Positions 29,457-30,867 are shown, counted from the first letter of the stretch. The stretch: 64,000 bases of DNA from Candidatus Dormiibacterota bacterium (GCA_963709585.1 CAVPXI010000023.1:49045-113044); one strand, 5' to 3'. The notes: generated from the letters alone by a model not told the origin. A program made the numbers and translations.

Positions 29457-29632
29457 AAACACAGCAGATAAGTGGGAGCCGTACGCTCGACCCACCCAGG
29501 ATCAGAGTAGCCGAGGGCACAGCGCTAAACGCCTGGATGGTTGCCGGGTATCTCTCTCTTGTTTTCCGGCCTCTGGCGCTGTTCTGTATTCGAAACCGAG
29601 CAGGTAAGCGCTCAGGCGACATAGCACGGCGC
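29457..29632 (+). repeat. att-like site D with both arms
   Basis: AAACACAGCAGATAA 29457 (-84), GGGCACAGCGC 29515, core 29541, AAACCGAGCAGGTAAG 29593 (+52), TAGCACGGCGC 29622 (+81). Confidence 0.88.
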
Positions 29633-29684
29633 CAAGCGAGGCGACCCCCCCAACGCTCCACATCGATCTGAGAGATTAGGCGCG

Positions 29685-30680
29685 ATGCTCAGATACATCG
29701 TCAGCCGCGTCCTGCAGGCGGTGCTGGTCGTCATCGGCGTCGCGACAGTGGTGTTCTTCCTCGAGCGTCTGATGCCCGGCGACCCGGGAAGGATCATGCT
29801 GGGACCGCGCCTCGGCCCGGCCCAGTGGGCGATCTACGACCATCAGAACGGGTTCGACCAGCCGATCCCGGTCCAGTACATCGACTTCCTCGCGAATCTT
29901 TTCCACGGGAGGATCGCCTTCACGCCGCCGGGATTCGCCGACCAGATCGACCCCTTCGAGGGTGGCGTGGTCGACGTCGATCTCCAGTCGCTGGTTAAGG
30001 GACCGATGATCAACTCGCTGATCCTGACTGGTCTGTCGACACTGTTGGTGATAGCCCTCACCATCCCCATCGCCCTCTACGAAGCGGCACGGCGGCGCCG
30101 GCGTGGAGCGCACCTCTCAAACATCATCTCGATGACGCTGTACTCGATCCCGCCGTACCTACTGGGCACGTGGCTCATCCTGGTTCTTGCGACGGATCTG
30201 AACTGGATCAATCTGAATACGCCGAATTGGAGCACGGGCGATGTACTCGCCGATCCGGCGGCGCTGATTCTCCCCACGCTGACCCTGTCAACGGGAACGG
30301 TCGCGCTGTTCACCCGCTATCTCCGGGCGTCGACGATCGATGAGCTGACCAAGGACTACATCACAACGGCGCGAGCCAAGGGCGCCTCCCGCTCCCGAGT
30401 CAGCCTGCGCCATGCGCTCCCCAACGCTTCGTTACCGATCATCACCCTGCTCGGCACGCGCCTTCCCCAGATCTTCGGTGCCCAGCTCGTCGTGGAGGTG
30501 CTTTTTGGATATCCGGGGCTGGGAACCACGCTGTGGAGCGCAGCGATGAATCACGACTTCTACTCCATGCTGGGAGCAATCCTGATCGCTGGCGTTCTCA
30601 CCACTCTCGGCTCGCTGATCACCGACTTGATCTACGCGGCGGTCGATCCTCGTATCCGATATGTCCATGCTCGGAGCTGA
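29685..30680 (+). CDS. Peptide/nickel ABC transporter permease (OppB/DppB-like), orphan
   Basis: MLRYIVSRV, MPGDP, EAA loop DYITTARAKGAS, RHALPNA, DLIYAAVDPRIR; no other ABC genes nearby. Confidence 0.92.
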   Translation: MLRYIVSRVLQAVLVVIGVATVVFFLERLMPGDPGRIMLGPRLGPAQWAIYDHQNGFDQPIPVQYIDFLANLFHGRIAFTPPGFADQIDPFEGGVVDVDLQSLVKGPMINSLILTGLSTLLVIALTIPIALYEAARRRRRGAHLSNIISMTLYSIPPYLLGTWLILVLATDLNWINLNTPNWSTGDVLADPAALILPTLTLSTGTVALFTRYLRASTIDELTKDYITTARAKGASRSRVSLRHALPNASLPIITLLGTRLPQIFGAQLVVEVLFGYPGLGTTLWSAAMNHDFYSMLGAILIAGVLTTLGSLITDLIYAAVDPRIRYVHARS

Positions 30681-30692
30681 TTCGCGCGCCCC

Positions 30693-30867
30693 AAAGACAG
30701 CAGATAATTCGGGCTCGCTCGCTAAGGACATGCAAGATACATAGCGTGCGATAGCACGGCGCATAGTCCCGTATGCTTGCCGGTATCTCTCTTGTTTTCC
30801 TGGCAGCAACCGAGCTTGCGTTGTCGAAACTGAGTAGATAACTGACTCAGCGTCGATCGCACACCGC
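30693..30867 (+). repeat. att-like site E, left arm plus degenerate right arm
   Basis: AAAGACAGCAGATAA 30693 (-84), TAGCACGGCGC 30752 (-25), core TTGCCGGTATCTCT 30777 (one G short), AAACTGAGTAGATAA 30827, TCGCACACCGC 30857. Confidence 0.8.

Follow-up and report, generated by a model that had tools for sequence, protein, structure and literature searches.

A lone ABC permease gene in a probable non-autonomous module of a recombination stack at a 5S rRNA gene

The question raised by this locus is how a single gene for an ABC transporter permease came to fill almost all of the space between two copies of a repeat. The window (the whole stretch of DNA analysed, 64,000 nucleotides from a Candidatus Dormiibacterota bacterium) is part of a 3.5-Mb metagenome-assembled genome. 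A sequence-only reading of it had proposed that the gene was captured from the chromosome between attachment sites, to form a cassette, rather than being left behind by a decaying element. Our analysis indicates that the 1.24-kb stretch is probably a non-autonomous integrative module, lying in a tandem stack at the 5S rRNA gene that was built by site-specific recombination at the core of the repeat. The module and the repeats that bound it consist of the following features, with positions counted along the window.

29453-29540, plus strand: left arm of repeat D, which alignments assign to the YCII module
29541-29564, plus strand: core of repeat D, TTGCCGGGTATCTCTCTCTTGTTT, the left end of the permease module; the copy in L105, a related locus at 95% identity, is 100% identical
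29565-29648, plus strand: right arm of repeat D, with boxes GAAACCGAGCAGGTAAG and ATAGCACGGCGC
29649-30690, plus strand: foreign segment, comprising the last nucleotides and TGA of an exchanger gene (ATCTGAGAGATTAGG), the permease coding sequence and about 10 nt after its stop
29685-30680, plus strand: permease coding sequence, an orphan OppB/DppB-type ABC permease of 331 aa (Pfam)
30689-30776, plus strand: left arm of repeat E, with box AAAGACAGCAGATAA at 30693-30707
30777-30797, plus strand: core of repeat E, the right end of the permease module, with 3 nt deleted relative to the consensus and to L105
30798-30882, plus strand: right arm of repeat E, part of the next (lipoprotein) module, which accompanies the lipoprotein gene in L180, L181 and L179

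The permease reading frame is intact, with no internal stops. Its product resembles the OppB/DppB/NikB importers in matching both family domains over their full length, namely BPD_transp_1 (PF00528, 1.2e-34, residues 127-325) and the N-terminal domain BPD_transp_1_N (PF19300, 8e-14). The best matches in NCBIfam are Opp2B, Opp4B and NikB, each scoring under its own cut-off, and the EAA-loop region (DYITTARAKGAS...LPNASLPII) can be recognised by eye. The stop codon (TGA, 30678-30680) is separated by 12 nt from the arm box AAAGACAGCAGATAA, which starts at 30693, and between arms D and E there is coding support for this frame only. The gene thus fills the gap between the arms as had been described. 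A scan of the array ORFs likewise confirmed the lack of an ATPase, a second permease and a binding protein.

The gene looks maintained. Its dN/dS against relatives is 0.13-0.27, which shows purifying selection, and the codon changes unique to the window copy (17 synonymous and 13 non-synonymous) suggest that this is somewhat relaxed. In comparison with L105 the permease is the best-conserved piece (98.2% identity, with 11 of the 18 differences at third codon positions), while the arms are 93-98% identical and the spacers outside the arms 83-89%. Four other public assemblies contain the module at 99.8-99.9% identity. It is therefore present in five independent assemblies, which rules out an assembly artefact.

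Repeats D and E belong to a family of about 190 nt, with downstream copies at 25541, 28942, 29453 and 30689, and a partial copy at 16651 that consists of the true 3′ end of the 5S gene and its downstream flank. The repeat is laid out as left arm, core and right arm. The left-arm boxes AAACAGAGCAGATAA and TAGCACGGCGC both recur in the right arm in direct orientation. The core is about 24 nt long (TTGCCGGGTATCTCTCTYTTGTTT); it opens with the final 8 nt of the 5S gene and continues with the bases that follow the gene, and cores D and E both contain the 5S gene end. A 19-mer from the core had no matches in 100 shuffles, and its occurrence by chance is not expected. The profile search (nhmmer) placed repeat D at 29450-29644 (hmm 3-198) and repeat E at 30687-30879 (hmm 4-198), with E-values of about 1e-45 and a spacing of 1236 nt from start to start. 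The arms had been described as complete, and both repeats do match the profile end to end, but the description is slightly generous, because core E carries the 3-nt deletion and several boxes of arm E are changed from the consensus. The deletion is present throughout the window's strain group. The right-hand site of the permease module looks impaired, and the arms and core E are drifting. The native leader of the permease, CTGAGAGATTAG, resembles the arm box CTGAGTAGATAA, to a degree that is indistinguishable from chance.

The function of the repeats is indicated by the start of the array. The ribosomal operon reads 16S rRNA, tRNA-Ile, tRNA-Ala, 23S rRNA and then 5S rRNA, and it is followed by an element, E1, and a further module, M2.

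16551-16667, plus strand: 5S rRNA gene (Rfam RF00001, 107 bits), whose last 8 nt, TTGCCGGG, open the recombination core
16660-16766, plus strand: attL of E1, with core TTGCCGGGTATCTCTCTTTTGTTT followed by the E1 right arm and its boxes AAACAGAGCAGGTAAG, TAGCACGGCGC and AAAAGAGTAGATAAT (nhmmer, hmm 93-193)
16668-25637, plus strand: E1, an element of 8.97 kb (Pfam, PHROGs, and the empty site of sister strains)
16774-17636: tyrosine integrase of E1, with one frameshift near 17310-17325
19030-20019: DUF3631 protein of E1 (Pfam/PHROGs)
20663-22258: large terminase, TerL, of E1 (Pfam/PHROGs)
22746-24287: capsid protein of E1 (Pfam/PHROGs)
24417-25124: prohead protease of E1 (Pfam/PHROGs)
25541-25740, plus strand: repeat B, which is attR of E1 and consists of the E1 left arm, the core and the M2 right arm (nhmmer, E-value 2.5e-50)
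25741-28941, plus strand: module M2, with three or four small genes unassigned in function and without Pfam matches, including one for a secreted protein at 28042-28770

The predicted genes of E1 recall those of a capsid-forming phage satellite. Three public assemblies (L182, L183 and L184) encode an identical permease, and are 99.6-99.9% identical to the window from 25629 on. L184 begins at window position 25643; only L182 and L183 inform on the absence of E1. Both of these reach the 5S gene, and in both E1 is precisely absent, so that the M2 right arm follows directly after the 5S gene. Alignment of this empty site with attL and attR places the crossover between the point where the 5S and left-arm sequences diverge and an A/T difference after TTGTTT, which is the 24-nt core. 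Between sister strains that are 99.7-99.9% identical E1 is either present or precisely absent, which establishes the core as a genuine site of crossover. The repeats are thus attachment sites, and the 5S-anchored stack is demonstrably active at strain level, for E1. L105 lacks both E1 and M2, and reads 5S, intact YCII gene, repeat D, permease, repeat E and lipoprotein gene. M2 and E1 must therefore have arrived after the permease module.

The E1 integrase begins 107 nt past the 5S gene and spans two frames, with the HxxR motif and the catalytic Y present. It is the sole cognate integrase in the array, and is frameshifted. Its best matches are XerC and XerD, and it scores 39 bits against the IntI model TIGR02249, for which the cut-off is 265. 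In searches of the genus and of GTDB genomes the best match is 43-46% identical, and no match lies beside a 5S gene. Each of the three nearest relatives (37-43% identity) lies some 60-200 nt from a tRNA gene, implying that this integrase clade targets stable-RNA genes. No close homologue was found in the 41 relatives searched, 24 of which are in the genus.

The origin of the permease gene itself was traced through its homologues. No ATPase, second permease or binding protein is adjacent to any of the homologues of 70-98% identity, in more than 30 contexts. The commonest context is a Na+/H+ exchanger gene, 14-16 nt, the permease, and then a convergent downstream gene, and this native exchanger-permease locus is syntenic in nine genomes (G019, G022, G008, G007, G011, G001, G003, G004 and G014). 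Since the homologues are alone even at the native locus, the loneliness is a trait of the clade and did not arise through capture. This distinguishes the orphan clade from OppB, DppB and NikB proper, in that no OppC, OppD/F or OppA lies beside any of its members. A canonical paralogue of 43% identity sits elsewhere in the genome, in a row of binding protein, OppB and OppC. The sequence-only reading had taken the absence of partners as a sign of capture out of an operon, and had suggested looking for a full opp/dpp operon around the closest homologue. The search found every such homologue to be alone. That argument consequently fails: in a clade whose members are all alone, the lack of neighbouring partners is uninformative as to capture from an operon.

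The array copy is not the genome's own gene. The native orthologue (C4:76821-77807) is 84% identical to it in protein and 79% in DNA, and belongs to another clade. Translocated copies, together with the native copies of G019, G022 and G008, form the group in which the array copy falls. At the nucleotide level it is closest to three metagenome loci (L031, L082 and L083), with 92-93% identity. It is a foreign copy, derived from the native exchanger-permease locus of another species in the genus. Compared with 17 homologous loci, the homology of the segment runs from 29660/29669 to 30666/30693. Its upstream end retains ATCTGAGAGATTAGG, which in the native locus holds the TGA stop of the Na+/H+ exchanger, and its downstream end retains about 10 nt of native sequence, so that it meets the arms within about 0-15 nt on each side. 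The homology limits and the retained exchanger stop imply that the segment was cut from a native-type chromosomal locus at gene-precise borders. No 5S-type arms were found around the closest permease homologues (L031-L034).

The remainder of the array contains the following features.

28942-29057, plus strand: repeat C, reduced to left arm and core (nhmmer, hmm 5-126), the right arm having been lost in a 205-nt deletion
29058-29400, plus strand: YCII-domain pseudogene, covering 15-91 of the 95 positions of the Pfam profile, with the first 12 or so codons gone and a 1-nt deletion
31018-31915, plus strand: lipoprotein-like gene of the next module, cut at 31910-31915
38167-38253, plus strand: tRNA-Leu(GAG), the far boundary of the variable region, conserved in all relatives

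Decay of this array is real, and leaves scars in the form of truncated genes, lost arms and a frameshifted integrase. The 205-nt deletion, defined by comparison with L105, took both the right arm of repeat C and the 5′ end of the YCII gene, which is intact in G131, G024, G011, G012 and L105. The upstream junctions of the YCII gene are of three different kinds, indicating that module borders are not uniform. On the other side, a 2.4-kb deletion at the microhomology GCCGGC eliminated the next repeat and produced a fusion of the lipoprotein gene with a peptidase A4 gene. The permease module is without such scars.

The permease module might itself be a product of this decay, left over from a complete element of the E1 kind in which the permease was cargo next to the left arm, and from which the integrase, replication and capsid genes were then deleted in place. 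The two deletions and the frameshifted integrase indicate that the process operates here. The last ORF of E1 stops 2 nt before the E1 left arm, so a position for cargo beside the left arm does exist, and derivation by deletion from an autonomous element is exactly the route described for CIMEs (PMC5704250). Against this, a tblastn search with the E1 proteins, covering the permease module and the arrays of 21 other genomes, found no trace of integrase, DUF3631 protein, TerL, capsid or protease, and what lies directly against the arms is a segment with gene-precise borders in which the stop codon of the native upstream gene is still present. The observed deletions have left genes cut short and arms lost, rather than tidy modules. 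No larger att-bounded element with an opp/dpp operon, and no other larger parent, was found in the more than 30 homologue contexts; such an element had been named in advance as the finding that would point to deletion. We therefore consider decay in place unlikely. That observed decay is scarred, that the permease module is scar-free and that no larger parent was found favours modules that are maintained, or made, as units. What stands of the earlier proposal of capture rather than decay is the discrete att-bounded module, the gene-precise foreign segment and the freedom from scars; the argument from loneliness is what has to be given up.

Modules of this kind can be followed in relatives. The region between the 5S gene and tRNA-Leu(GAG) is variable in all relatives examined (4-21.5 kb), and about 12 of the 42 genus genomes have extra repeats in it. 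A 2.0-kb module encoding SDR and TetR proteins is 95.5% identical across G012, G020 and G019, in genomes whose chromosomal background near tRNA-Leu is only about 77% identical. In G012 and G020 it begins at the first base past the 5S core, and in G019 at an internal core, as the third module of the array; the 5S-proximal module of G019 encodes a different tyrosine recombinase. The lipoprotein module always comes with right arm E, and in each context the switch falls in the core. It follows the 5S gene in L181, G003 and G117, an inverted YCII module in L180, an adjacent repeat pair without a gene in L179, and the permease module in the window and L105. From these contexts and their breakpoints the unit can be defined as right arm, gene and left arm. 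Comparison of the relatives shows recombinase-less modules of one build acting as units, their breakpoints falling in the core.

The permease module has been seen solely in the window's strain group and L105, at a constant position and with no difference of presence and absence. In the window's lineage it is fixed. L180 was considered as an exact excision product of the permease module and rejected: its right arm is that of E, its left arm is of a third type and its YCII gene is inverted, and it therefore represents modular exchange at the core, not a clean empty site.

The breakpoints within relatives are also those expected of homologous recombination: no other identical stretches are as long as the cores, and the rrn operon provides an anchor of 98% identity. 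This is a point against site-specific assembly of the stack, and homologous recombination on the rrn operon and the cores is a possible route for some of the shuffling. In its strict form this explanation would make the repeats old att scars, shuffled by RecA-type exchange through the rrn operon and the repeats themselves, with no integrase acting on the small modules. It would fit the rrn flank being 97-99% identical across the genus, the breakpoints falling within the most conserved 24-33 nt, and most arrays being without an integrase. The repeats, however, share only 72-83% identity outside the core, which makes them poor RecA substrates, and the boxes are conserved in both arms. Nor would it readily account for the SDR+TetR module, which in G012 and G020 occupies the core next to the 5S gene and in G019 a core inside the array, and E1 shows current site-specific insertion at the core. 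As the sole explanation, homologous exchange seems to us a rather remote prospect.

The weakest proposal, that the repeats are structured-RNA or terminator units like the tRNA-linked (RtT-type) repeats and that the genes arrived by unrelated events, is largely refuted and very improbable, since, although the 5S 3′ end is copied at the end of each repeat, with a T-rich tract after it, the four arm segments fold no better than shuffled sequence (z -0.06 to -0.93), Rfam at E-values up to 5 over 25000-31500 gave nothing relevant and recognised the repeats neither as 5S copies nor as a known RNA family, no terminator-like site was found, the copies lie 0.4-9 kb apart with genes between them rather than in tandem, and the empty and occupied sites of E1 map to the core. 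A scan for consensus promoters and terminators over 28900-31100 found nothing in the arms, and the idea that the arms supply promoters or terminators is accordingly unsupported.

Under the preferred reading, of a module assembled by core recombination, the permease module consists of right arm, one cargo gene and left arm, with a core of about 24 nt on each side. It may have entered as a small circle, whose joined ends would form an attP-like site of left arm, core and right arm, or it may have been carried in with a neighbouring integrase-bearing element by cis-mobilisation. The integrase could have been provided in trans by transient E1-like elements. The cargo is trimmed to the gene, and the module was in place before M2 and E1 arrived; it is now presumably a fixed and vertically inherited gene.

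A more far-reaching reading is that this Dormibacterota genus has an integron-like platform for collecting genes that uses neither IntI nor attC. Taken whole, with every one of its parts, we think it improbable. The docking site would be the 3′ end of the single 5S rRNA gene, and single chromosomal genes would be packed between two attP-type arms with gene-precise borders. Circles of 0.4-2 kb would be integrated, released and exchanged among species with the help of tyrosine integrases on loan from transient satellite-like elements. Some of the cargo (the permease and the SDR+TetR unit) would be common to a second type of cassette-like array in the genus, with a 28-nt motif.

If modules are mobile as units, they would represent a second and mechanistically different solution to the problem solved by integrons, the collection of single genes at one chromosomal site. 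This would be achieved with double-stranded att sites of phage type and a borrowed integrase, anchored in an rRNA gene of a poorly known soil phylum. The strain-level data offer a natural empty site and occupied site, and defined substrates (the core and two arms). The permease shares its loneliness, an ancestral trait, with an entire clade of orphan OppB-like proteins that are coupled to a Na+/H+ exchanger gene. This corrects an easy misreading, and the role of an OppB-like protein without partners is a question in its own right.

Among known systems, integrons provide an obvious comparison. Their cassettes, like the modules here, are mostly single-gene, recombinase-less and tightly packed at one fixed site, and here as there content and order vary between close relatives. 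The resemblance is functional only. An integron was rejected as there is no match to an IntI model: TIGR02249 at 1e-40 had no match in 42 genus genomes, in a search that had no positive control. The attC site of integrons is an imperfect palindrome that folds as a single strand (R''-L''...L'-R'). The arms here bear direct-repeat boxes which are not inverted, are not palindromic and do not fold; the sites have two box-bearing arms round a core, as in a phage attP; and the docking site is inside a stable-RNA gene.

The composite SCC and psi-SCC islands of staphylococci, at rlmH (orfX), consist of recombinase-less cassettes between direct repeats, piled up behind a conserved gene at its 3′ end; a neighbouring element supplies the recombinases that mobilise them. 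Stacked recombinase-less cassettes between direct repeats at the 3′ end of a conserved gene are what is found here too. The SCC system differs in its serine recombinases (Ccr), its much larger cassettes, its repeats of about 15-20 nt and its target gene.

CIMEs, and their tandem accretion, are known from ICESt1 and ICESt3 of Streptococcus thermophilus (Pavlovic 2004; Bellanger 2011; as reviewed in PMC5704250). The present array shares with them integrase-less units lying between direct att repeats in which the target gene's 3′ end is included. The permease module has neither an integrase nor transfer genes of its own, an integrase-bearing element (E1, at the 5S gene) lies in tandem at a shared att site, and newcomers insert at the gene-proximal site. 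The differences are that the target here is a 5S rRNA gene, for which we found no paper describing it as an integration target or attB; that a unit comprises one gene, in 0.4-2 kb, and retains nothing of a parent element; that the partner is satellite-like and not conjugative; and that the modules recur in many orders across species.

The tycheposons of Prochlorococcus are tyrosine-recombinase elements at stable-RNA genes, some of them PICI-like with capsid genes and some with cargo (10.1101/2020.12.28.424599). They stack as the present modules do, with older elements pushed deeper and with partial target-gene repeats and degenerate remnants left behind (10.1101/2020.12.28.424599). They use tRNA genes, with partial tRNAs as att sites, whereas the array here uses the 5S end and composite repeats of about 190 nt, most of its modules are without any integrase, and the tRNA-Leu at 38167 serves only as its far boundary. 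The permease unit is best read as a CIME-like or integron-like non-autonomous module, att-bounded and with a single gene of foreign origin, and it is closest in logic to the tandem accretion of CIMEs (PMC5704250) and to the stacks of tycheposons (10.1101/2020.12.28.424599).

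Strains that are 99.7-99.9% identical differ by the precise presence or absence of E1, the integrase-bearing, phage-satellite-like element directly behind the 5S rRNA gene in the window. They thus provide a natural set of attB, attL and attR for a 5S-targeting integrase. The integrase gene of E1 has a frameshift near 17310-17325, which may be real or may be an assembly error. In genome G019, the 5S-proximal module holds a fragment of an AAA_25/RepA-like gene together with a different tyrosine recombinase, which adjoins the left arm of the module. This is therefore a second, unrelated integrase-bearing element at the same site. 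E1 and the recombinase gene of the G019 module are located as follows:

Window 16668-25637: E1, 8.97 kb, with integrase, DUF3631, TerL, capsid and protease.
L024:14496-15371 (G019:C1:2594496-2595371): tyrosine recombinase of 291 aa, different from that of E1.

Compared to the sister-strain contig L182, 2.4 kb are missing from the window. L182 has there the lipoprotein gene's 3' end, two small genes, an additional att repeat and the 5' portion of a peptidase A4 gene. In the window, the sequences on either side meet at a 6-nt microhomology, GCCGGC (31910-31915). At L179:2734-3159, only 45 nt separate two full att repeats, so that the module consists of arms without a gene; it is possibly a cassette precursor, or a leftover. 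L180 represents a lineage of 93-96% identity; at 342-958 of this contig, between 5S and the next repeat, the YCII module is in inverted orientation and adjoins a right-arm fragment that is likewise inverted.

Elsewhere in the window, group I introns occur in the 16S and 23S rRNA genes (10618-11400 and 14892-15111), accompanied in sister assemblies by LAGLIDADG genes. A 273-nt repeat is present three times in tandem at 56234-57052 and probably encodes repeated domains within one gene; two of the copies match the reference copy at 92% and 73% identity. In M2, the module following E1, the secreted-protein gene begins with a stretch (28035-28166) that is an inverted repeat, at 75-76%, of 42401-42532 and 44033-44108, which are two gene starts 14-16 kb downstream. 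A dispersed family with a common leader and signal peptide is suggested.

Three further features lie outside the window:

G000:C14:175886-177834, and 20 other genus genomes: SDR+TetR unit, 1.95 kb.
G000:C4:69640-77807: the genome's own permease orthologue and a tyrosine integrase gene.
L031:3577-15582 and G000:C14:434011-436282: second repeat family.

The SDR+TetR unit is found in 21 of the 42 genus genomes, with the same sharp ends throughout. Its identity across these genomes is 88-97% (94-97% for full-length copies), far above the chromosomal background. Its contexts are of several kinds, including 5S arrays and sites with the second repeat motif after the unit.

Nine relatives share a native arrangement of the permease and Na+/H+ exchanger genes, from which this genome departs: its own permease orthologue is inverted with respect to the exchanger gene next to it. 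The tyrosine integrase gene is 6.6 kb away.

The second repeat has the motif GGGGTYGTAYTARCGAnnnACGAGGTTG. L031 contains at least 10 copies, uniform in orientation and spaced 0.6-3.2 kb apart, each interval being one or two genes; one such interval houses the closest homologue (92%) of the window's orphan permease. Of 16 genomes of the genus, 12 have small clusters of the motif; 10 genomes of other genera have none. A search of the genus for an integron integrase found none. The second repeat family may thus mark an array system of its own, similar to cassettes.
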